A DNA stretch of 24,000 bases from contig NZ_CP043869.1 in assembly GCF_008630635.1 (NCBI RefSeq), forward strand, positions 2,207,160 through 2,231,159, given 5' to 3'. The notes below the pieces were generated by a model, which worked only from the letters and a program-made list of their open reading frames with translations, did no database searches and had not been told where the DNA came from. Shown here one piece after another: positions 2,306-22,541 of the stretch. This DNA comes from Neptunomonas concharum (lineage in GTDB: Bacteria > Pseudomonadota > Gammaproteobacteria > Pseudomonadales > Balneatricaceae). Position 1 is the first letter of the stretch. Each line of letters begins with the position of its first letter. Both the position numbers and the translations under genes were made by a program.

Positions 2306-3487
2306 ATGGCAACAATTGGCACCCCTCTTGCTGCAAACGCAACCCGTGTGTTGATGTGTGGTGGTGGAGAACTAGGCAAAGAAGTCGTCATCGAACTACA
2401 AAGATTAGGGGTAGAGGTGATTGTGGTTGACCGCTACGCGAACGCGCCGGCCATGCAAGTTGCCCACAGAAGCCATGTTATCTCGATGCTGGATGGCGAA
2501 GCATTGCGAGAAGTCATTCAAGCCGAGAAACCAGACTTAATCGTCCCAGAGATAGAAGCCATTGCCACGGACACATTGATCGAGCTTGAAGCTGAAGGGT
2601 TTACTGTCATTCCAACCGCCAATGCAACTCGTTTAACCATGAACCGTGAAGGAATTCGTCGTTTAGCCAGCGAAACTCTTGGTTTAAAGACATCTCCCTT
2701 CAAGTTTGCTGAAACCCGTGAAGAGTATCTCGCGGCCATTCAGGACATTGGGCTCCCCTGTGTTGTAAAACCGATCATGAGTTCTTCAGGCAAAGGCCAA
2801 AGTACGGTGAAAACTGAAGATCAGATAGAGAGCGCTTGGCAATACGCCCAAGAGGGAGGCCGAGCAGGTCAAGGTAAGGTGATTATAGAAGGCTTCGTCG
2901 ATTTCGACTACGAGATAACTTTGCTCACTGTTCGACATACCAATGGCACCGCTTTTTGTGAGCCCATCGGCCACGTTCAAGTGGATGGGGACTATCGCCA
3001 ATCCTGGCAGCCACAAGCGATGTCCTCAGCAGCACTAAGCGCAGCCAAAGATGCAGCATTGAAGGTTACCGAAGCTTTAGGCGGCCGAGGGTTATTTGGT
3101 GTTGAACTTTTTATCAAAGGCGATGAAGTACTCTTTAGTGAAGTGTCACCAAGACCCCATGATACCGGTATGGTTACCATGATATCTCAAGATTTATCGG
3201 AATTTGCACTGCACGCCCGCGCTATATTAGGGTTGCCTATTCCAAACATTCATTTTCATGGCCCTAGTGCCTCCAGTGTTATTTTAGTTGAGGGCAACTC
3301 TAATAAGGCACAGTTTGCTGGTTTAGACGCTGTACTGGCGATGCCAGATACTCAGCTACGCCTATTCGGTAAGCCCGAAGTGGCCGGACAACGGCGCATG
3401 GGTGTTGTACTTGCCCGCGATAATACGGTGGAATCAGCAATCTCTAAAGCCAGTAAAGCTTCCTCTAACATCACGGTTACCCTTTAA
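2306..3487 (+). CDS. purT: Formate-dependent phosphoribosylglycinamide formyltransferase (GAR transformylase 2, ATP-grasp)
   Basis: 393 aa. The N-terminus [23 protein letters not shown] and full-length similarity match PurT. AAGGA lies 9 nt upstream of the ATG. Confidence 0.95.
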
Positions 3488-4214
3488 CATCCGCCGATTC
3501 AGGCTGAACCAGCGCATACCAAAGCTGGTTCAGCTCGGACCGTAGCGCGATTGCGGTTTTCAAAGCGCTTTGAAAGTCTGCTGTATTAAGGTGTTCAAAT
3601 AGCGGCAACTTCGCCAGTGCCGCCTCCTCGCAGCCAAACTCTTCACTCAATGCCGCGACATCAAGCCAAGGAGAGCCTAAGCCTGCATACTCCCAGTCGA
3701 GTACAACAAGCTGCTGCTTGTTCTGCAAAAGATTCCCTATGTGTAAATCGTGGTGCGCTAGGCAATATGGAATCTTAGGCAATGCACCAAATAACCGCCT
3801 TGTCCGATCCAGATTTTCTTGAAGGGAAGCCCGTTGTTCGGATGCTGATATGGCATCTATCTTTTCTTGGTAACCTTTCCAGATTAAATCGTACTTCTGT
3901 TCAGGCACATCAGATATTGATTGCCACTGCGCCACAATAGCCAACAGATCAGCTTGCGCTGGCATATTGCTAAGTTCCTGATACTCGCACAGGATCAACT
4001 GATCTACCGAAGACTCTAAAACATCAGGAGCCCAACTAAACCCTGCTATACGCGCCAATACTTGCTGCTCTCTTTGCCGATTAATACCCGGAATATCACT
4101 GCGACAATTTATCCTAAGGACGGCAGGCTGATTTTTATAAGTACCAACAAATAGTGTATTCGTCGTACCTGAATGGCCTTCAAGAGGCCGCCACCCCGCT
4201 AAGGTCAACGCCAT
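3477..4214 (-). CDS. Choline/ethanolamine/thiamine-kinase-family phosphotransferase; thiamine kinase is likely from context
   Basis: 245 aa with the Brenner-type catalytic loop [10 protein letters not shown] and the downstream VVLDWEYAG motif. It is transcribed divergently from the riboswitch-controlled thiBPQ operon. Its 3' end overlaps the purT 3' end by 11 nt. Confidence 0.6.
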
Positions 4215-4284: not shown

Positions 4285-4372
4285 TAGCGCCCTCTTATCG
4301 GGGTGTCTGTATCGGTGCAGACTGAGATTTTACCCGTCGAACCTGATCCGGGTTATACCGGCGTAGGGAATA
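4285..4372 (+). promoter_or_regulatory. TPP (THI-box) riboswitch
   Basis: Conserved core read directly: GGGGTG...CTGAGA...ACCC...ACCTGATCCGGGTTATACCGGCGTAGGGAA. It lies immediately 5' of thiB. Confidence 0.9.
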
Positions 4373-4378
4373 AAGGAC

Positions 4379-5353
4379 ATGATGAAAAAACTTTTTACAG
4401 GCTTATTACTCTCTAGCGCAACAACTCTACACGCGGCAGATCTGACCATCTATACCTATGATTCATTTGTATCAGAATGGGGCCCCGGACCTAAGCTGGA
4501 AACTGCCTTCGAACAAGAATGCCAATGTGATATTGAATTTATCGCGGTAGAAGATGGCGTCAGCATTTTAAACCGTGCTCGCATTGAACAAGCACGCACG
4601 AAGGCTGACGTTCTGCTTGGGCTGGATAACTCCCTTACCGAGATTACCCGTGAAGCGAAACTGACACAACCTCATAATATTTCACTCGATCCAATTAGTG
4701 CACATCTTAATGGGCAGGACGATACCTTCGTACCTTTTGACTATGGGTATTTCTCGTTCATTTATGACAGTGAGAAAATTCAACAACCTGCTACCTCACT
4801 AAAAGCCCTGATTGAGTCAGAAGCCTCCGTTATCTATCAGGACCCGCGCACCAGTACACCAGGACAAGGATTGATGCTATGGGTTAAGGCCGTTTATGGT
4901 GATGAAGCACCCTCTGCCTGGAAACAACTTGCAAGCCACACTGTCACCGTCACTAAAGGCTGGTGGGAAGCGTATAGCATGTTCCTAAAGGGTGACGCCG
5001 ATTATGTTCTCAGCTACAACACATCCCCTGCCTACCATCAGGTTGCTGAACAAAAGAATCAATATAAAGCAGCGCGTTTTTCCGAAGGACACATTGTACA
5101 AACAGAGGTTGCTGCCATTTCAGCTTATGCGCAAAACCCAGCTCTGGCTCAGCAGTTCCTGACGTTTCTTATCTCCCCAAAAGCGCAGTCCATTATCCCT
5201 GTCACGAACTGGATGTTACCGGTCATCGACGATGTTACACTGCCCGAAGCATTTGATAGTCTGATCAAGCCTAAAACCATCGGCTTTACAGCTGAGCAGA
5301 TTGCCAAGCAGCGTCAACAATGGATTAGAGAGTGGCGCGCTTCTGCCAATTAG
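4379..5353 (+). CDS. thiB: Thiamine/TPP ABC transporter periplasmic binding protein
   Basis: 324 aa. It has a signal peptide (MMKKLFTGLLLSSATTLHA/AD) and ThiB/TbpA-like sequence, and it is followed by thiP and thiQ downstream of a TPP riboswitch. Confidence 0.9.
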   Translation: MMKKLFTGLLLSSATTLHAADLTIYTYDSFVSEWGPGPKLETAFEQECQCDIEFIAVEDGVSILNRARIEQARTKADVLLGLDNSLTEITREAKLTQPHNISLDPISAHLNGQDDTFVPFDYGYFSFIYDSEKIQQPATSLKALIESEASVIYQDPRTSTPGQGLMLWVKAVYGDEAPSAWKQLASHTVTVTKGWWEAYSMFLKGDADYVLSYNTSPAYHQVAEQKNQYKAARFSEGHIVQTEVAAISAYAQNPALAQQFLTFLISPKAQSIIPVTNWMLPVIDDVTLPEAFDSLIKPKTIGFTAEQIAKQRQQWIREWRASAN

Positions 5354-5355
5354 CC

Positions 5356-6930
5356 ATGAGTCATTGGCTTAGTTATGGTCTGGTGCTGTCTTTTACCTGT
5401 CTTTCCTTTTATGGACTGATTAGTTTTGGGAGCGCCTCACCTGACATTAACCTACTAAGCGATAGCTACTTCTATGAACTGTTAGGCTTTACCCTAAAAC
5501 AGTCATTGCTTAGTGCATTACTCTCTGTTGCGCTCGCTATTCCGGTTGCCAGAGCGCTATTTTACTGCCCGACACTTCCCGCAAAGCGCTGGTTTCTCGC
5601 TTTCTGTTTACTCTGTTTTGTAACACCAACGCTGATCGTCATTACTGGCATGGTTGCGCTGCTGGGGCGTTCAGGGCTTTTAACACCATTACTCAACCAA
5701 CTGACAGAGAACGGCTGGAACCTCTATGGGTTGTCAGGCATCTTACTGGCCCATATTTTTTTGAATACACCATTAGCGATTCGGTCGATCTGGTTACAAC
5801 TGAGCGCTATCCCTGAAACCAGTTGGCGCTTGGCTGCACAGCTTAAACTCTCCCCTTGGCAACGCTTTAAAACGGTGGAATGGCCTGTACTGAGGCAATC
5901 ATCCGCTGTGATCAGCGGCTTTATTTTTGTATTATGCTTCAATAGCTTTGCAGTGGTTCTAGCACTTGGGGGCGGCCCGAGTTCAACCACATTAGAAGTA
6001 GCTATTTATCAAGCGCTCAAATATGACTTTAATATAGCCGAAGCACTCACTCTGGCATGGTCACAACTGCTGATTGCAGGCACTCTATACGCCGTCATGA
6101 CACGTTTCGGCACGCTCTCATGGCAGTCAGTGGATAATGGAAGCCCGCACTCCCCACCCCAACCCTCCCGACAAAAAGCCAATATTTTTAAGCTGATCTA
6201 TCTACTGAGCTGGATACTGTTGTTGCTCCCTTATATTGCGTTGCTACCGGGATTACTAGATTACACACCCCGATGGCAGGACCTGAGTATGATTACCCGC
6301 CCCGCTGCCATCAGTCTAGGCTTGGCTTTTGTAGCAGCGATGATGGCCATGGGTATCGCCTACCTTCTGCTGCAGCCGATTCGCACTGCAGCGCTGCAAC
6401 AAAAAGAGCAACAACAGTTCTGGCTTGAGACTGTCGCTACACACACGCTGATCACACCGGCTATGGTGTTATCGGTAGGCTTGTTTGTCTTTCTGCTACC
6501 TAAGGTTGATCTGGATCGCTATGGCATCATTGCCGTAGTCATACTTAACACACTGTTGCTGGTACCCTTTGCCATACAAAAGCTAAAGCCACGAGTACTC
6601 CAATTTGATCAACAATATGATCGTTTAGTCCGGTCATTAAAACTCAATAACCGACATCGCTGGCGACTACTTTGGCCATTTATTAAACCGGTATGGCTTT
6701 CTACATTCGGGCTTGTTTTTGTACTGGGCTTGGGTGATGTGGCGATATTCTCCATTTTTGGCAATGCCGAATGGACCACGTTACCTTGGCTAATTTATGG
6801 GTTTGCCGGTAGCTATCAGTTGGCGGAAGCCAGTGCCGCTTCTTTTTTGCTGTTATTTATCTGTGCGTTGATCCTTTTCCTACTAGAACGCACACAAACG
6901 AGGAATACCGTCCGTGTTGAACATTCTTGA
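5356..6930 (+). CDS. thiP: Thiamine ABC transporter permease (duplicated MetI-like domains)
   Basis: About 525-532 aa polytopic membrane protein with two permease halves. The ORF track starts at GTG 5332, inside thiB. ATG 5356, 3 nt after the thiB stop, is more plausible. Confidence 0.88.
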   Translation: MSHWLSYGLVLSFTCLSFYGLISFGSASPDINLLSDSYFYELLGFTLKQSLLSALLSVALAIPVARALFYCPTLPAKRWFLAFCLLCFVTPTLIVITGMVALLGRSGLLTPLLNQLTENGWNLYGLSGILLAHIFLNTPLAIRSIWLQLSAIPETSWRLAAQLKLSPWQRFKTVEWPVLRQSSAVISGFIFVLCFNSFAVVLALGGGPSSTTLEVAIYQALKYDFNIAEALTLAWSQLLIAGTLYAVMTRFGTLSWQSVDNGSPHSPPQPSRQKANIFKLIYLLSWILLLLPYIALLPGLLDYTPRWQDLSMITRPAAISLGLAFVAAMMAMGIAYLLLQPIRTAALQQKEQQQFWLETVATHTLITPAMVLSVGLFVFLLPKVDLDRYGIIAVVILNTLLLVPFAIQKLKPRVLQFDQQYDRLVRSLKLNNRHRWRLLWPFIKPVWLSTFGLVFVLGLGDVAIFSIFGNAEWTTLPWLIYGFAGSYQLAEASAASFLLLFICALILFLLERTQTRNTVRVEHS

Positions 6931-7510
6931 CCTTAGCGTTGTATTGGATGGTTATACGCTACATTACGATTTAAACGTAATTAAAGGAGAGTGCGTTGCC
7001 ATTCAAGGCGCAAGCGGAGTGGGCAAAACAACCTTACTGAATATGATAGCGGGTTTTCTCAAACCCGAATCCGGAGCGATTTTCTGGGATGGTATGGACA
7101 TCTGCCAGCTAACGACTGAGCAACGACCAGTGAGCATGCTCTTTCAAGACCATAATCTCTTTGAGCACCTATCCGTTATTAACAATTTGCAGCTAGGTTT
7201 TGAAAAAGCGCCCCCCCAGCAACAGATTCTGCAAGCGTGCCAAGCGCTCGGGATTACCGACCAGCTGGAAAAAATGCCGCCACAACTTTCAGGTGGGCAA
7301 CGCCAGCGCGTCGCGCTGATCAGAACGCTTTTACGCCCAGAACCCATTGTTTTATTGGATGAACCGTTTGCAGAATTGGATCCTGAAAGCCGCCGAGCCG
7401 CTGCGCTTTGGACAAGGGAGGAAGCTAAAAGAGCAGGTAAAACATTGCTATTAGTCACTCATCAGGATGAGGATGTCAGCCTTGTTGCTGACCGAGCCAT
7501 TCGACTCTAG
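6914..7510 (+). CDS. thiQ: Thiamine ABC transporter ATP-binding protein
   Basis: 198 aa with Walker A GASGVGKTT, signature LSGGQRQR, Walker B IVLLDEP and H-loop VTHQ. The GTG start has GAGGA 9 nt upstream and overlaps the thiP end by 17 nt. Confidence 0.9.
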   Translation: MLNILDLSVVLDGYTLHYDLNVIKGECVAIQGASGVGKTTLLNMIAGFLKPESGAIFWDGMDICQLTTEQRPVSMLFQDHNLFEHLSVINNLQLGFEKAPPQQQILQACQALGITDQLEKMPPQLSGGQRQRVALIRTLLRPEPIVLLDEPFAELDPESRRAAALWTREEAKRAGKTLLLVTHQDEDVSLVADRAIRL

Positions 7511-9937: not shown

Positions 9938-11530
9938 TTAGCCTGCAACACCTTGGCTTCTTAAATAATCTTCATAGGTACCACGGAAATCTACGATACC
10001 TGTTGGCGTTAACTCGATGATGCGCGTTGCCAATGAAGACACGAACTCCCGGTCATGACTGACAAAAATCAACGTACCTGGATAGTTTTCTAACGCCAGA
10101 TTTAAGGACTCAATAGACTCCATATCCAAATGGTTGGTTGGCTCATCCAGTAACATAACGTTTGGCTTTTGAAGAATCAGTTTACCAAACAACATACGTC
10201 CTTGCTCACCACCTGATATCACCTTAACCGACTTATCGATCTCTTTTTGCGAGAACAACAAACGGCCTAATGTGCCGCGAATAACCTGTTCATCATCCCC
10301 TTCTTTGCCCCAGTCCCCCATCCATGCCAAGAGGGTTTTATCTGTCTCAAAGTCTTTCGCATGATCCTGAGCATAGTAGCCAAGCTCTGCATTTTCAGAC
10401 CACTTAACCTCACCCGAGGTGGGCTCCAAATCACCAACTAGACATTTTAGCAAGGTACTTTTACCAATACCGTTAGGGCCGATGACCGCGATACGCTCTC
10501 CGACCTCAACCATCAAATTGAAGCCAGAGAAAAGCGGCTCATCAAAGGATTTGCTCAAGCCTTCCACTTCAAGGGCCAAACGATGTAGCTTTTTGTCTTG
10601 CTCAAAGCGAATAAAAGGGTTCTGACGGCTGGAAGGCTTAACCTCTTCCAGCTGAATTTTATCAATCTGTTTTGCACGGGAGGTGGCTTGTCTGGATTTT
10701 GAAGCATTAGCCGAGAAGCGGCTAACAAATGCTTTTAGATCTGAAATCTGGGCTTTCTTTTTAGCGTTTTCAGAAAGCAGACGCTCACGAGCCTGAGTCG
10801 ATGCGGTCATATACTCATCATAAGAACCGGGATAAACCCTAAGCTCACCATAATCCAGATCGGCCATGTGGGTGCACACACTATTTAGAAAGTGGCGATC
10901 ATGGGAAATAATGATCATGGTGCAGTTACGCTCGTTTAAAACACCTTCCAGCCAACGAATCGTATTGATATCCAAGTTGTTGGTAGGCTCATCCAATAGC
11001 ATGATATCTGGATCAGCAAACAGAACCTGCGCCAACAGGACACGAAGCTTCCAGCCCGGTGCGATTTCACTCATTGGGCCATAATGCTGCTCTAGTGGAA
11101 TACCAACCCCTAGCAACAATTCACCTGCGCGGGATTCGGCGGTATAGCCATCCATCTCGGCAAACTCACCTTCAAGCTCACCGGCGCGAATACCATCCTC
11201 TTCACTCATATCCGGGTTTGCATAGATGGCATCGCGTTCCTCTTTAACTTTCCACAGCTCTTCATAGCCCATGATAACCGTATCAATCACGCGATACTCT
11301 TCATAAGCGAATTGATCCTGCTTTAGTTTACCGATGCGCTCGTTCGGATCTTTTGAGACATTGCCACTGCTTGGCTCTAGGTCGCCACCTAGAATCTTCA
11401 TAAAGGTGGATTTACCACATCCATTAGCGCCAATTAGGCCGTAGCGGTTCCCGTCACCAAATTTAACGGATACATTTTCAAAGAGCGGCTTAGCGCCGAA
11501 CTGCATGGTGATATTCGCGGTTGTAAGCAA
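9938..11530 (-). CDS. ybiT: ABC-F family ATPase (YbiT-type, two ABC domains, no permease)
   Basis: 530 aa. The N-terminus [53 protein letters not shown] is close to my recollection of E. coli YbiT. Two Walker A, signature and Walker B sets are present. The start codon is TTG. Confidence 0.9.
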
Positions 11531-11688
11531 TGTTCTATCCCAGTTTTTCTATGATTATCCAAACCAACTCAGCGGCTTGGATGCCAACAATAAAGCCGCC
11601 CATTATGCCATAAAACAAATTGATTCTGGCGAATGTTTTGTTCACAGAGCTAATTGTATATATTGATCTCCCAAGCAGGAGGAGACCG

Positions 11689-17655: not shown

Positions 17656-17703
17656 GATCGACCAACATAGCGAAGTAATTCGCTAATGTTAAAAGTTAAA
17701 AAA

Positions 17704-17725
17704 CCCTGCTTTGGCAGGGTTTTTT
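17704..17725. terminator. Bidirectional rho-independent terminator shared by icd (+) and the 1504-aa gene (-)
   Basis: CCCTGC-TTTG-GCAGGG stem-loop flanked by an A-run upstream (AAAAAA) and a T-run downstream (TTTTTT), so it reads as a terminator on both strands. Confidence 0.8.
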
Positions 17726-17773
17726 CGTTTAGATGGTCGGGAAGTAGTTATCGCAGTGACCTCTCTGTCATAA

Positions 17774-17793
17774 TGAGTCAACTAAAACTCTTT
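17774..17793. repeat. Left copy of an imperfect 20-bp direct repeat flanking the 1504-aa gene
   Basis: TGAGTCAACTAAAACTCTTT matches TGAGTTAACAAAAAATCTTT at 22424..22443 at 17 of 20 positions. It lies 13 nt beyond the ORF stop. Confidence 0.4.
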
Positions 17794-17806
17794 ATTCTCT
17801 TTTTCC

Positions 17807-20800
17807 TTAATAACCTTCTTGAATTTCCTGAATATCACCCACTCCCAAGCCTATGAACTTATCCTGCAACGATAAAATACGATCAATCAACTCAATATCG
17901 TCACTCATATCAGCTTCTTGCAACATAACCTTTAAAGCAACAACAAGGTCATCTGAGCGATAGAAATGAACAGGCTCATCTGCTTGAGAGAGCCTATCTA
18001 ATAAAACTTCAAATATCTCAAGAACACCTAAAAAGTCATACATAACATAGATACTTGCCCAGACCAGTAAACCATCAAAGTCTCTATAATTATTCACCGG
18101 ACAGTGTCTGACAAACTTGGTTGCCAGAGAAATTGGCACCACTTTTGATATATCTCTCTTGGACATTTCTAAATCAAGATTAGTATAAATCTCAGCTACA
18201 TCACTGTTATCAAATAACCGTAAAAGACCTTTAATACACTTACCTTTTTGCTTGGTAGAAATAAGGTTGTGTGAGAAAACCTGCCCAATACCTACCCAAC
18301 AACCGTTTGTAGAAGCAGAAGCAGCTTTTTCAAACAGCTCATCTTCTGTTAAATGTCCGGCAAAATAACTTAGAGCAGCTAATCTACCCCAAGCTTCATG
18401 GCAATCTTCACTATTAGAAGTAAGGTATTGATTAAGGTAAGGATCAACTTTCTCAAAGCTTTGCGAGTATTGGTAATACAGACTCTGCTCAAGTTCTTTC
18501 CACAGTAACGAATCACTACCGCTAAACAAATTGTCTAACAGCTCCCAACCCAAACCAGGAACCCGTGAATGAAAGTAAGGAAACCTGCGCGCGAAACCAG
18601 CCCTAACAGGCATAGCTGCATCTTTTGAGTAGCGAGCCAATAAATCTATCAGCTCTTGTGGCAGGTTCTTTTCTTGATCTATAAGTCGGTTACTTATAAC
18701 CAACACTGATTCAGCAGCTATACCCCTAACGGAGTTAATCGCTGCTCCCATCAGTCCCATACTAGATACGTCTTTATCTACCTCAAGACTACTTGACGTC
18801 GATAAAACCCAAAGCTGGAAGCACAGTCTATCAATTTCGTTGTCAGTCTCAAGAATAAAGCTACAGGCTTGAACAGCATGGGTTAGACAATATCCTCTTT
18901 TATCTAATCCACCATACTTTTCAATCAACCCAAGAAGATTAAGTGCTAACGCATATCCGTCAGGGAGAGGATCTATTTTTCGCCAATCTTGATGTGAAGA
19001 ATTACCAAAGCGGGAGTTTAAATGATCTGATATACCTTCCAGTATCGATACAATGTATTTTCTGGAAAGACCTTCCTGAACGATACGTTCGATCAGCGGT
19101 AGAAACCGTATAGGCTCCAGAGTTGCTGCAGTCTTTAACGATTGAGTGATACTCTCCATATCTCCGAGGAGACGTGCACCCACCCGATCAGCAAAAGAAT
19201 AATAACCATCATAATGCCGAAGGACCTTAATCATCCACTCACTACTAAACTCTCTCAACGTGTCAGAAGATACAGGTGGAGAGACAACTCCCCCTATCGA
19301 ACTTTTATCTGGCTCCGCTCTTAAAACACCAAACCATGGAGAGTGTTTATCTATGATCTGAACAGCCTTTGTATTTCGGAAAATAGAAGGGATACAGACC
19401 AATAGCTCATATTTTTTTTCATCAATCCAATTCTCTTCACCATCATCGGAGTGCATTTCAAGCACGATTCTTTGGTATTGATCTTGTATTTCATCGGTTA
19501 AGTAAGGAAAAGAACAGCTTACTAATTCTGAAATCTCGTACCCAAACGAACCAAACTTTAGCAAGTCGGGATCTGTCAGTTGTCTAGAAATGCCATCGAG
19601 GTTATCAAGTACATTAAGCTTATATAGTTCTAGAAGAAGATAGCGAAGACCAAACTCAGGACTAGAACGAATCCTCTGCTGGAAATCATGCCACAACGCA
19701 TCACCACCAGCCTCTACCCTCACTCTCAAAGCCTTCTCAACAGAGGTCATAAGCTCACAGAACGAGTCATGACTGTGCATTCCAGGGCCACAATGCCTCC
19801 GAGCCCAAGAAGTGTCATATAAGAGATCCACACCATACTTATATAGCCCCTCCTTACCAAACCGCTCCAGGTACGATAACGCTAATTGAAGCAACTCATC
19901 GGAGTTCTGAAGTCTTCTAGTGAGAAACTCTTCGTCTATAAACGTATGGCGATCACAATTGAGTTGTATTTCTCGCCCACGCAGTACTTCTTCAGGCGAT
20001 TTGCACCCTTTAGTGATGTATTCCCACAGTAATAGATCCCCACTATTAGTACTTTCGACATACTGGCTAATTACCTTTCCCAGACTACCTCTTTCATCAC
20101 CAGCCATATCTAAGAGGCGCTTAAGAAGGCGATAAAACTCAGGTTCGTTCCAATGCCCAAAGTCCTCAATGCCATGCCCCACAGACCATAGCAGTTGACG
20201 ATTATGCATCCACTCATCATCAATAGCTTGATGCCAAATTGTTAACAGTTCCATCGGATAAGATTTCATAAACTTGGATGCATAAAAAAAGAACTTCGTT
20301 AACAACCCCCCATCTGCATCAACATTCATCCTTGGTAACCATAAGCTTTCAAGAAGTTCAAACCACTCATTTCCCTTCGCGGTATCCAGAAACCGATTGA
20401 ACATTAAAGGCTGACTGCGTGATATCTTCATCAAGACCATGGCATCAGACTCTCTAGGTGTACTTTCAGCAAGAGTCTCTATTACTAAACGCTTGAGATG
20501 GGCTGCAACTTCATCAGAATTGATAAAACGTAAAAGTTGCTTGATATATTGCCTCTCATCACTCCTAAGCTGCTGAGCATATGTGCGAACAGACGGTCTA
20601 ACAAAAGGAAGTTGGGCTTGGGAAAGAACAAAATCTGTGAGGTCATTACCAGACTTAATAACCAGTCTAACGCGCATAGCATCAGCTAAGGTTTGGTGAC
20701 TAAACATCAACTGGTTTGAGGTTACACGAGTAAGGACATCAGAACTCAACAACCGCTGAATCACTGTATTTGAAAGCGATAAAATAGAATCAGAAAATTG

Positions 20801-22321
20801 ATAACTTCGATCATCGAGTAGCCTCTGAGCCAAAACCTCTAACGCAGAAACTACATCATTACCTAATAGCGGGTCTTCAGCGACAATCGTCTGGATATAA
20901 TTATCGTGCAATTCATCAGCCTGGATTACTCCAGGGGACTGCCCACGTTCAATTAAGGTATAAAACAGTTTCAAATTCTGCGGGATAATCAATAGAGTCT
21001 GAAGCTCCTTACTCAGACCATCTGGGTCTACCCCAAGTTTGATCAAGAAAGGTGCCACATCGGCATTGTAATCAAGTGATGTCAGCCGGACCTTGCTAGC
21101 CCACTGTTTCTCACGCAGCAAAGGATCATATTTCGCATCAAAGCTTCTGCATGAAGCAATCACTGTTACATTCGGAAGATTTTCTAATTCGGCTATTAAC
21201 CCTAGAAATATCGCCAAAGAATGATGACTTCTGCCTAAAGCTAAGACATCCAAGGAATCAACAATAACCGTGAACTTATGACGTGAAGAGTACCTAGAAA
21301 CCTGCGCTACCAAATCTGTGGGCAGTCCATGTTCACTCAGTTGTTCTAGACTAGTTATAGAGGCGAATAAATCCCCCCGAATAAACAAAAAATCCTTATT
21401 CGTTGAAGACTCTAAATGATCAACAACATCTAACAGCACGCAAGTTTTACCACCACCAGCGACATCTTCAAGGAGGACGGAAGATACCCCATCCTCTATG
21501 GCTTGAATTAAATCAGCACATTCTTGGCGCGCTATTTTCTCTCCCCCAATACTCCTAGACCATTGCCGTCCAATAGATGAAAACGAATGAACACCGTTTA
21601 AAAAGCTTTCCTCATTAAAGTCACAGGATAAATAAACCCCCTTAGATTCCAGACTTTTTAAAACACTTTCCCTATCAATTAGGTATTGTGGTTCACCTAG
21701 TTTGCTGTGTTGGTGGTCTATATAACTCCAAAGCAACTCATATGTAAGCGTAGGATTGGAACAGATAGGCTCTAACAACTGTATACATATTTCCCCCCAG
21801 CTATTCACTGCATTGTGTTCGCCAATCTTTATTCGCCTACACAAGAGAAAAGCTTCATTTTCATCAACAGACCAAAAATCTGACAATTTAGCTAATACGG
21901 TTTTAACATTTTTAGCGGCAACTCTCTTAAACTCAGCAACCCCCGAATAAAGACAAGCTTCTTCAATAAATCGTTGAAAAACACCAAAAGGTGTACGGGA
22001 ATAGAAATAAAAGAGGCAGTTAGGGTCCACTGTTAACTGTTTCTTGGCTGATAATAGTTCTTCTTTTAAGACACTGTCCGATAGTCTCCAAAAGTGATGA
22101 TCTGCCTGATTCACTTTGGCCTGAATATAAGTTCTATTCCTATCTTTACTGATAAGAACAATATCATCGCCATAAACAAGCTCTGTCTCTTCTGGCAAGC
22201 CTACTGAATCAACCTGAACTGAAATTATTTCATCCTTCGTCAGCATCTTAACGATCCAGTAAACAGCTACAGACCGTTGATATGCATCTCCTCTATTTGA
22301 TCGGATACCAGCAAGACTCAT
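17807..22321 (-). CDS. Large tripartite protein: N-terminal Cap4/DUF4297-like PD-(D/E)xK nuclease motif, central NACHT/STAND-like P-loop NTPase, and an uncharacterised C-terminal region of about 1100 aa. Candidate single-gene NLR/Avs-like antiphage defence protein.
   Basis: Uninterrupted 1504-codon ORF. Residues 11-70 read GDAYQ...VQVDS...GDDIVL...YIQAKV. Walker A is DVAGGGKT (K292), Walker B is TVIVDSLDV (D355), and an IASCRS motif carries R392. The remainder is Leu/Trp-rich and looks helical. The DNA is AT-rich and lies next to a tRNA. Confidence 0.85.
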   Translation of the reverse strand: MSLAGIRSNRGDAYQRSVAVYWIVKMLTKDEIISVQVDSVGLPEETELVYGDDIVLISKDRNRTYIQAKVNQADHHFWRLSDSVLKEELLSAKKQLTVDPNCLFYFYSRTPFGVFQRFIEEACLYSGVAEFKRVAAKNVKTVLAKLSDFWSVDENEAFLLCRRIKIGEHNAVNSWGEICIQLLEPICSNPTLTYELLWSYIDHQHSKLGEPQYLIDRESVLKSLESKGVYLSCDFNEESFLNGVHSFSSIGRQWSRSIGGEKIARQECADLIQAIEDGVSSVLLEDVAGGGKTCVLLDVVDHLESSTNKDFLFIRGDLFASITSLEQLSEHGLPTDLVAQVSRYSSRHKFTVIVDSLDVLALGRSHHSLAIFLGLIAELENLPNVTVIASCRSFDAKYDPLLREKQWASKVRLTSLDYNADVAPFLIKLGVDPDGLSKELQTLLIIPQNLKLFYTLIERGQSPGVIQADELHDNYIQTIVAEDPLLGNDVVSALEVLAQRLLDDRSYQFSDSILSLSNTVIQRLLSSDVLTRVTSNQLMFSHQTLADAMRVRLVIKSGNDLTDFVLSQAQLPFVRPSVRTYAQQLRSDERQYIKQLLRFINSDEVAAHLKRLVIETLAESTPRESDAMVLMKISRSQPLMFNRFLDTAKGNEWFELLESLWLPRMNVDADGGLLTKFFFYASKFMKSYPMELLTIWHQAIDDEWMHNRQLLWSVGHGIEDFGHWNEPEFYRLLKRLLDMAGDERGSLGKVISQYVESTNSGDLLLWEYITKGCKSPEEVLRGREIQLNCDRHTFIDEEFLTRRLQNSDELLQLALSYLERFGKEGLYKYGVDLLYDTSWARRHCGPGMHSHDSFCELMTSVEKALRVRVEAGGDALWHDFQQRIRSSPEFGLRYLLLELYKLNVLDNLDGISRQLTDPDLLKFGSFGYEISELVSCSFPYLTDEIQDQYQRIVLEMHSDDGEENWIDEKKYELLVCIPSIFRNTKAVQIIDKHSPWFGVLRAEPDKSSIGGVVSPPVSSDTLREFSSEWMIKVLRHYDGYYSFADRVGARLLGDMESITQSLKTAATLEPIRFLPLIERIVQEGLSRKYIVSILEGISDHLNSRFGNSSHQDWRKIDPLPDGYALALNLLGLIEKYGGLDKRGYCLTHAVQACSFILETDNEIDRLCFQLWVLSTSSSLEVDKDVSSMGLMGAAINSVRGIAAESVLVISNRLIDQEKNLPQELIDLLARYSKDAAMPVRAGFARRFPYFHSRVPGLGWELLDNLFSGSDSLLWKELEQSLYYQYSQSFEKVDPYLNQYLTSNSEDCHEAWGRLAALSYFAGHLTEDELFEKAASASTNGCWVGIGQVFSHNLISTKQKGKCIKGLLRLFDNSDVAEIYTNLDLEMSKRDISKVVPISLATKFVRHCPVNNYRDFDGLLVWASIYVMYDFLGVLEIFEVLLDRLSQADEPVHFYRSDDLVVALKVMLQEADMSDDIELIDRILSLQDKFIGLGVGDIQEIQEGY

Positions 22322-22423
22322 GATTCAATATTTTCCGCCAAAGGCATAAACACTTATTGGGCGACATCATATCACTGATACTTCCCTGTAAAAAATCTCA
22401 CCAGCTAAGAGGGCCTTATCTTC

Positions 22424-22443
22424 TGAGTTAACAAAAAATCTTT
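22424..22443. repeat. Right copy of the imperfect 20-bp direct repeat flanking the 1504-aa gene
   Basis: TGAGTTAACAAAAAATCTTT lies 102 nt upstream of the ORF start codon and 98 nt from the tRNA 3' end. Confidence 0.4.
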
Positions 22444-22541
22444 CGCAAATGCCCTAAATGGTTTTTCCTTAAACTTTAGGCTTTAACACAACTACTGTGA
22501 AAAATAAATCGCATAGAAAAATCGTAGGATGTGGAAACATA

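Follow-up and report, generated by a model that had tools for sequence, protein, structure and literature searches.

The 24,000-nucleotide stretch of Neptunomonas concharum DNA analysed here (the window; NCBI RefSeq assembly GCF_008630635.1, contig NZ_CP043869.1, positions 2,207,160 to 2,231,159 of the forward strand) raises a simple question: what is the 1504-residue protein encoded at 17807-22321 on the minus strand, which RefSeq labels 'hypothetical protein' (WP_150036810.1 / QEQ97102.1)? We propose that it is a one-protein antiphage receptor with the Avs7 class of mechanism, and we give this reading a probability of roughly 0.87. The proposal is based on homology, conserved residues, folds, purifying selection and the presence or absence of the locus; by analogy with a characterised relative, SeAvs7, we infer a trigger, an oligomeric state, a nuclease activity, a role for EF-Tu and a phenotype. 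The gene and its parts are these:

17807..22321, minus strand: Avs7-family gene, 1504 codons plus stop (open reading frame (ORF) scan, translation and full-length match to PDB 9N00)
21632..22321, minus strand: predicted Cap4-type PD-(D/E)xK double-stranded DNA (dsDNA) nuclease effector, about residues 1-230 (LmuA and HamA matches, residues D52/D53/Q67/K69, structural model)
20522..21559, minus strand: predicted STAND NTPase with nucleotide-binding domain (NBD), helical domain (HD1) and winged-helix domain (WHD), about residues 255-600 (invariant residues, SeAvs7 mapping, Foldseek)
within 20522..21559, minus strand: Walker A, G289-T293; Walker B, D355/D358; R392, putative gamma-phosphate contact; H542, putative WHD contact to ADP
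17810..20521, minus strand: predicted TPR-like alpha-solenoid sensor, residues 601-1504, with a short helix at its C-terminal end (model and SeAvs7 alignment)

SeAvs7 consists of a Cap4 nuclease, a STAND NTPase and a bilobed TPR-like sensor, and it protects E. coli from Drexlerviridae phages as a single gene (Lee et al., Nature 2026;657:735; bioRxiv 10.64898/2026.01.04.697583). Its trigger is the HK97-fold major capsid protein of tailed phages, and it binds host EF-Tu as an enhancer. On activation an ADP-bound, autoinhibited monomer becomes an ATP-bound asymmetric tetramer, whose assembled Cap4 domains cut dsDNA. Structures are available of the apo form (PDB 9N00), the monomeric complex (9N01) and the tetramer (9YIX), and the deltaCap4 construct is delta2-225. 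The same study catalogues 3,272 Avs7 sequences and describes more than 20 alternative N-terminal effectors in the family (Lee et al., Nature 2026;657:735).

The match between the two proteins runs from end to end. A family profile searched against PDB sequences found 9N00_A over its full length with 1770 bits (1523 residues, named 'AAA family ATPase'; likewise 9N01 and 9YIX). As a single sequence, the N. concharum protein (the query) matched SeAvs7 in 9N00 by phmmer at E=5e-159, aligning residues 1-1498 with 1-1514, and query residues 907-1498 alone matched SeAvs7 918-1514 at E=1.7e-55. That single-sequence PDB search returned no further chain at E<=0.01, Avs3 and Avs4 included. Full-length homology, the NTPase residues, an N-terminal effector and a mobile or defence-type genomic context are all Avs7 features that the query displays. 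As judged by its sequence, then, the 1504-residue protein is an uncharacterised Avs7-family member and belongs to a known kind of system. An initial annotation of this stretch had held that the clade, named or new, could not be told; full-length homology places the protein in Avs7, and neither in Avs1-5 nor in a new family. Against the PADLOC 2.0 models of Avs1-5, which we rejected as candidates, the query gave no Avs match at E<=1, and one of 32 relatives weakly matched Avs2.

For residue mapping we rebuilt SeAvs7 residues 1-1514 from the printed alignments. The rebuilt numbering agrees with the R367, R395, H545, Q999, D1003, K1044, H1048, D1059, N1204, Y1289 and N1361 of the published work, and gives these correspondences by alignment:

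Cap4 active site: SeAvs7 D45/D46/Q60/K62, query D52/D53/Q67/K69
Walker A: SeAvs7 K291/T292, query K292/T293
Walker B: SeAvs7 D358/D361, query D355/D358
Autoinhibitory contact, partly conserved: SeAvs7 R367, query R364 (R in 43 of 46 sequences)
ATP gamma-phosphate contact: SeAvs7 R395, query R392 (role from Lee et al.)
WHD contact to ADP: SeAvs7 H545, query H542 (role from Lee et al.)

Every catalytic and nucleotide-contact residue of SeAvs7 is kept in the query and is invariant, or nearly so, in the 46 homologues. The text of Lee et al. gives 'Thr291, Lys292' as ATP ligands; these numbers are apparently swapped, because Walker A in the sequence reconstructed from the PDB 9N00 alignments reads K291, T292.

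Is the reading frame itself sound? The initial annotation had described a single 1504-residue gene with a set of short motifs, and the ORF scan and translation agree with it at each residue: GDAYQ at 11-15, GDDIVL at 51-56, IQAKV at 66-70, GGGKT at 289-293, IVDSLDV at 352-358 and ASCRS at 389-393. The ATG at 22321 is the earliest possible start downstream of the preceding in-frame stop, and the scan found no ORF of at least 80 residues on the opposite strand within 17807..22321. The product is identical to the RefSeq protein from N. concharum, which begins at M1 (1504 residues); in GenBank assembly GCA_006148955 the annotated protein (our P0001, 1479 residues) begins only at M26. Because residues 2-19 are near-invariant in the family (S2, A4, G5, S8, G11, D12, Q15 and A19; residues 1-25 occupy 22246-22321 on the minus strand), M1 at 22321 is the correct start. 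By the same alignment, beginning at M26 deprives Cap4 of its predicted first helix.

At E<=1e-3 a database search yielded 369 homologues, the 120 best of them all at E<=6e-167. Most are about 1500 residues long and cover 100% of the query at 27-45% identity. In an alignment of 46 full-length homologues (27-89% identity), D52, D53, Q67, K69, G289, G291, K292, D355, D358, R392 and H542 are invariant, together with about 35 further positions along the entire length, the C-terminal 900 residues included. Such conservation marks the motifs as functional sites rather than strings that arose by chance.

The N-terminal module resembles nucleases of several defence systems. Among PADLOC models the query matched LmuA at E=4.6e-6 (residues 11-230) and HamA/DUF1837 at 8e-4 (residues 5-82); 22 of 32 relatives matched LmuA, and four of 32 matched Pfam Cap4_nuclease below threshold. 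The query N-terminus is also directly homologous to the Cap4 domain of SeAvs7, which is experimentally active. Two homologues (P0045 and P0048) and others on cyanobacterial conjugative plasmids have a caspase domain in place of Cap4, and this Cap4/caspase exchange among relatives is effector swapping of the kind typical of defence STANDs. The caspase versions lie on large Nostoc, Tolypothrix and Microchaete plasmids (H2-H6; for example NZ_CP064880.1 128959-133221) and share about 32-33% identity with the query over residues 117-1500, which span the NTPase and sensor; seven plasmid records gave a match, and five of these are typed as conjugative. Some of these proteins carry the label 'pentapeptide repeat-containing protein', apparently a misannotation.

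The central module was recognised through its relatives and its predicted structure. Pfam AAA matched 15 of the 32 relatives, nSTAND_NTPase5 nine and NACHT eight, and AAA_16 was matched too; one relative (P0097) scored 31.2 bits to NACHT against a cut-off of 26.7. An AlphaFold2 model of residues 1-640, computed with the family alignment (pLDDT 88.9, pTM 0.80), comprises an alpha/beta N-terminal domain (core pLDDT about 90), then an alpha/beta domain with a P-loop, and after it helical and winged-helix domains. In the PDB, Foldseek matched this model best to Avs3 with terminase (8DGC, E=3.6e-18) and Avs4 with portal (8DGF, E=7e-13), followed by NLRP14, NLRP7, NOD2, NLRP3, NLRC4 and Apaf-1; the probability was 1.00 to Avs3, Avs4, NOD2, NLRP3, NLRC4 and Apaf-1. 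In the model, then, the query carries the NBD-HD1-WHD fold of the STAND, or NLR-like, NTPase superfamily. The remainder, residues 560-1504, was modelled as an all-helical solenoid (pLDDT 85.8, pTM 0.59), and the pTM is compatible with two lobes whose relative position is uncertain. A low-confidence loop at 1042-1050 is the counterpart of the flexible region of SeAvs7 that contacts EF-Tu. These results bear out the three-part reading of the initial annotation: a Cap4/DUF4297-like PD-(D/E)xK nuclease at the N-terminus, a P-loop, NACHT-like STAND NTPase in the centre and a large C-terminal sensor in which it had seen no catalytic motif. The structure prediction and hidden Markov model searches it had proposed did find both the nuclease and the NTPase folds, the latter searches finding the NTPase in relatives of the query.

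How did such a gene come to lie between a convergent gene for monomeric isocitrate dehydrogenase (IDH) and a PAS-GGDEF gene? The features of the locus are these:

17740..22538, no strand: variable islet of 4799 bp in which the Avs7 gene is the sole ORF (blastn against metagenome contig L088)
22542..22617, minus strand: tRNA-Ala(GGC), with its 3' end bounding the islet upstream (ARAGORN; Rfam RF00005, 60 bits)
17698..17725, no strand: A-run, GC hairpin and T-run (AAAAAACCCTGC-TTTG-GCAGGGTTTTTT) where the IDH and Avs7 genes converge (sequence reading)
22473..22501, minus strand: weak sigma-70-like promoter candidate, TTCACA-17-TAAAGT, inside the islet and 5' of the start codon (9 of 12 consensus matches)

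A metagenome scan with the GGDEF neighbour protein revealed the empty site. L088 and L089, two contigs of close relatives, encode GGDEF, IDH and CreBCD proteins that are 96%, 99% and 92-94% identical to those of the window, and lack the Avs7 gene. Both have the order GGDEF, tRNA-Ala, 95-bp spacer, terminator hairpin, IDH (tRNA and spacer region at 11384-11557). By blastn, L088 10001-11462 equals window 24000-22539 and L088 11558-15000 equals window 17739-14297; nucleotide homology thus stops at 22539, 3 nt beyond the tRNA, and restarts at 17739. The GC content of the islet is 0.407 against 0.466 in the remaining window (0.453-0.478 in equal-sized windows elsewhere), and at third codon positions it is 0.355 in the Avs7 gene against 0.41-0.51 in the neighbours. 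No direct repeat flanks the islet, no integrase is present, and a search of the whole window at up to 3 mismatches found no repeat of the tRNA 3' end. The islet was horizontally acquired at the 3' end of tRNA-Ala(GGC) as a single-gene segment. The initial annotation had called the Avs7 gene the only non-housekeeping gene in the window; this stands for proteins, and it had left unmentioned the tRNA-Ala, which precedes the start codon by 220 bp on the same strand. The check it had suggested, variable island or housekeeping synteny, came out for the former, at this empty site and in the homologue contexts described below.

The hairpin at 17698..17725 is also conserved at the L088 empty site and is therefore part of the flank rather than of the islet. 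It is a probable bidirectional terminator, and the incoming gene appears to borrow this IDH terminator in the opposite direction. As for the promoter candidate, a consensus scan found sigma-70-like sites in the region to be no more numerous than expected from shuffling. A separate genome scan based on IDH found, among the best 80 of 593 relatives, no Neptunomonas and no synteny past IDH, and so says nothing on the insertion.

The other proteins of the window have housekeeping functions: methionine salvage, PurT, a thiamine transporter and CreBCD. A thiamine pyrophosphate (TPP) riboswitch at 4289-4386 on the plus strand (Rfam RF00059, 72 bits) lies directly 5' of an operon at 4379-7510 for a solute-binding protein, a permease and an ATPase, which is presumably the thiamine transporter; a phosphotransferase gene of the APH/choline-kinase family (3477-4214) is divergent from it.

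Homologues elsewhere keep varied company. The six contexts that we compared were all different, and four of them held defence or mobile genes. An 86%-identical allele (L086) adjoins Wadjet-like JetC/MksB and MksE genes and a DUF3800 gene; another homologue lies with integrases, transposases and AAA_15/AAA_21 ATPases, another with TIR-FGE and TIR proteins, and another with type I restriction-modification, AbiE, PIN, RES-Xre and Fic genes. In the remaining two contexts the homologue stands singly among ordinary genes. Because the homologues have no conserved housekeeping synteny, we regard the Avs7 gene as behaving like mobile defence cargo. Homologues also occur on four IMG/VR contigs, and in isolated phage genomes (INPHARED) none is encoded at E<=1e-20. 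On one of the IMG/VR contigs (L168 10001-14572; UViG_2878579171_000002) a 1523-residue Avs7 homologue is a moron in a lambdoid prophage. One of its flanks holds a Q-like antiterminator, DnaC-like and O-like replication genes and CII/CI; the other holds the genes for endolysin, TerS, TerL, portal and head protease. This prophage thus encodes a putative capsid-sensing receptor together with its own HK97-type head module.

How would the protein act? By homology to SeAvs7, the resting state would be an ADP-bound, autoinhibited monomer with Cap4 held against the NTPase and the C-terminal sensor lobe. During infection the two solenoid lobes would clamp a newly made phage protein, most likely an HK97-fold major capsid protein. 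Clamping would prise the C-terminal helix off the nucleotide-binding domain, so that ADP could be exchanged for ATP (K292/T293, D355/D358, R392, H542). The ATP form would then tetramerise, bringing its Cap4 domains (D52/D53/Q67/K69) together as an active dsDNA nuclease, and the infection would be aborted by destruction of DNA. The initial annotation had the effector 'released' on activation, a step that we drop because in SeAvs7 the nuclease domains are assembled into the tetramer. Its expectation of a one-gene, Avs/NLR-like defence without partner genes fits an islet with no other ORF, and SeAvs7 works in this way.

What weighs against this reading is mainly distance. Scans of the query against Pfam and NCBIfam gave zero matches at E<=1, so the classification was built on homologues, PADLOC, the PDB and structure. 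Foldseek found for the 560-1504 model only generic HEAT/karyopherin solenoids with low TM, in a PDB library that predates 9N00. Identity to SeAvs7 is about 26-28%, and the query falls outside the group that shares 41-64% identity with SeAvs7, in a separate marine gammaproteobacterial sub-clade (mutual identity 37-45%). One of the three capsid hydrogen-bond residues tested in SeAvs7 is changed (N1361 to I1354), as are two of the five EF-Tu interface residues mutated there (Q999 to V987, D1059 to A1049). Finally, confident EF-Tu association is confined to one clade, 192 of 1757 Avs7 homologues (Lee et al., Nature 2026;657:735). Because of the low identity and the separate sub-clade, a capsid trigger and any use of EF-Tu are what we infer for the query.

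Several of these points would also be expected if the marine sub-clade had kept the Avs7 scaffold and its nuclease output but had been retargeted, either to a non-capsid phage protein or to capsid sensing that dispenses with EF-Tu or relies on another host cofactor. The low identity, the replaced contacts and the narrow distribution of EF-Tu association all favour such a shift, and alternative activators are allowed for by Lee et al. (Nature 2026;657:735). A comparison with the 86%-identical allele (window 17810-22321, minus strand, against L086 6745-11256; Nei-Gojobori) adds to the case. Synonymous divergence (dS) was about 0.12-0.15 over residues 1-25 and 276-700, 0.38 over 1101-1325 and 0.77-0.95 in other blocks, and synonymous sites were saturated over 826-1000. 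This unevenness suggests, at the sequence level, recombination between divergent Avs7 alleles. Residues 826-1000 are also the most divergent segment between these two close alleles (69% amino-acid identity), as expected of an arms-race surface, and lie just upstream of the stretch that makes the EF-Tu contacts in SeAvs7 and overlap its beginning. Because of this mosaic of synonymous divergence, the idea of an EF-Tu-independent or retargeted Avs7 lineage, with a sensor diversified by allele recombination, has some support. Against it, the sensor aligns over its whole length, and its tryptophan, proline and glycine landmarks are conserved together with two capsid contacts (SeAvs7 N1204 and Y1289, query N1196 and Y1282), which are present in 26 sequences plus the query, across both sub-clades examined. 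Three of the five EF-Tu interface residues are kept as well (D1003, K1044 and H1048 as D991, K1032 and H1036). Capsid recognition by Avs7 is reported to follow overall shape and not individual residues, and the far more distant sensor of Dsr1 is also triggered by capsid protein (Lee et al., Nature 2026;657:735). We consider retargeting unlikely, at about one chance in five. The major capsid protein is the probable trigger of the query protein by homology, a view strengthened because even the Dsr1 sensor responds to it; involvement of EF-Tu is uncertain.

Could the gene instead be a decaying or domesticated relic, with no defence function left or with a cellular regulatory role like that of non-immune STAND proteins? 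It is alone among housekeeping genes, with no second defence gene in 24 kb, it has no strong promoter match and the query lies below all Pfam thresholds. Yet the 4.5-kb frame is intact, its catalytic residues are invariant, and the ratio of nonsynonymous to synonymous divergence (dN/dS) against the L086 allele is 0.14 overall (Cap4 0.14, NTPase 0.16, sensor 0.125) and at most 0.20 in each segment where it could be computed. The Avs7 gene is kept by purifying selection across all three domains. Its absence from close relatives is moreover the opposite of a fixed housekeeping role, and other homologues likewise stand singly. Decay or domestication is thus very improbable.

Least probable of all is a component of a multi-gene system with partners encoded elsewhere (for example PDC-M54, Lamassu, Hachiman or CBASS, with Cap4/DUF1837-like nucleases), since against the weak LmuA and HamA matches of the query, and the PDC-M54A matches of 17 of 32 relatives but not the query at residues of about 435-650, stand the confinement of the LmuA and HamA matches to the nuclease domain, an islet with no other ORF, homologue neighbours that are never the same, a protein without SMC/LmuB, helicase/HamB, SAVED or cyclase domains, and an SeAvs7 that defends as a single gene. 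Lamassu, Hachiman and CBASS were rejected on matches only in residues 5-230 and no partner ORF in islet or window, and PDC-M54 on matches limited to the HD1-WHD region, in relatives only, and no partners. The PDC-M54A models concerned (PDLC04700 and PDLC04702) match HD1-WHD of the relatives, which suggests that the PDC-M54A candidate is a related STAND lineage.

Reading the gene as an Avs7 receptor gives the 'hypothetical protein' WP_150036810.1 a functional name and a testable mechanism. It does not add a new kind of system, since the Avs7 family was characterised structurally and functionally in 2026; it does mean that a sequence-only reading very probably recovered a real immune receptor. 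The locus cleanly illustrates a defence islet of one gene at a tRNA, with a matching empty site in close relatives. It also identifies a divergent marine Avs7 sub-clade suited to probing the generality of capsid sensing and EF-Tu co-option; were the sub-clade indeed retargeted, it would be a natural experiment in which an NLR-like receptor changed its cofactor or target specificity.

Among known systems SeAvs7 is the closest. The two proteins have the same three-part architecture (1504 and 1523 residues), are collinear throughout and are single-gene systems; they have identical Cap4, Walker A/B, arginine and WHD-histidine residues, the query is predicted to end in a C-terminal helix as SeAvs7 does, and both are horizontally mobile and of a kind frequently found in defence islands. 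They differ in a 7-residue insertion in the query Cap4 around residues 43-49, in a shorter query loop where SeAvs7 has its regulatory loop 199-215, and in a query C-terminus 3-4 residues shorter than those of two aligned complete SeAvs7-clade sequences.

Avs3 shares Cap4, STAND and TPR modules and a tetrameric state with this architecture and is the best structural match of query residues 1-640, with Avs4 (EcAvs4, 8DGF) second. However, SeAvs3 (8DGC) and EcAvs4 (8DGF), described by Gao et al. 2022, are 14% identical to the query and show no sequence-level match, and their sensors, which bind terminase or portal, have no sequence relationship to the query sensor. The Cap4 tetramer geometry of Avs7 also differs from that of Avs3 (Lee et al., Nature 2026;657:735). 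Defence-associated sirtuin 1 (Dsr1) is reported to have an Avs7-type bilobed sensor and a capsid trigger (Lee et al.), but it lacks the STAND NTPase and uses a SIR2 NADase as effector; the PADLOC Dsr1 models gave no match to the query at E<=1, so that the Dsr1-Avs7 relationship was not reproduced. Cap4 of CBASS, LmuA of Lamassu and HamA of Hachiman have the same type of N-terminal PD-(D/E)xK domain, whereas the query lacks the SAVED sensor, LmuB/SMC or HamB helicase partner of those systems. Eukaryotic NLRs (NOD2, NLRP3, NLRC4, NLRP14) differ in that the query has an alpha-solenoid in place of an LRR sensor, a nuclease fused directly and without an adaptor domain, and, by homology, a tetramer as its active form; what they share with it is NBD-HD1-WHD (TM-score about 0.4, normalised to query length), the contact of a WHD histidine with ADP and the logic of ligand-induced oligomerisation.

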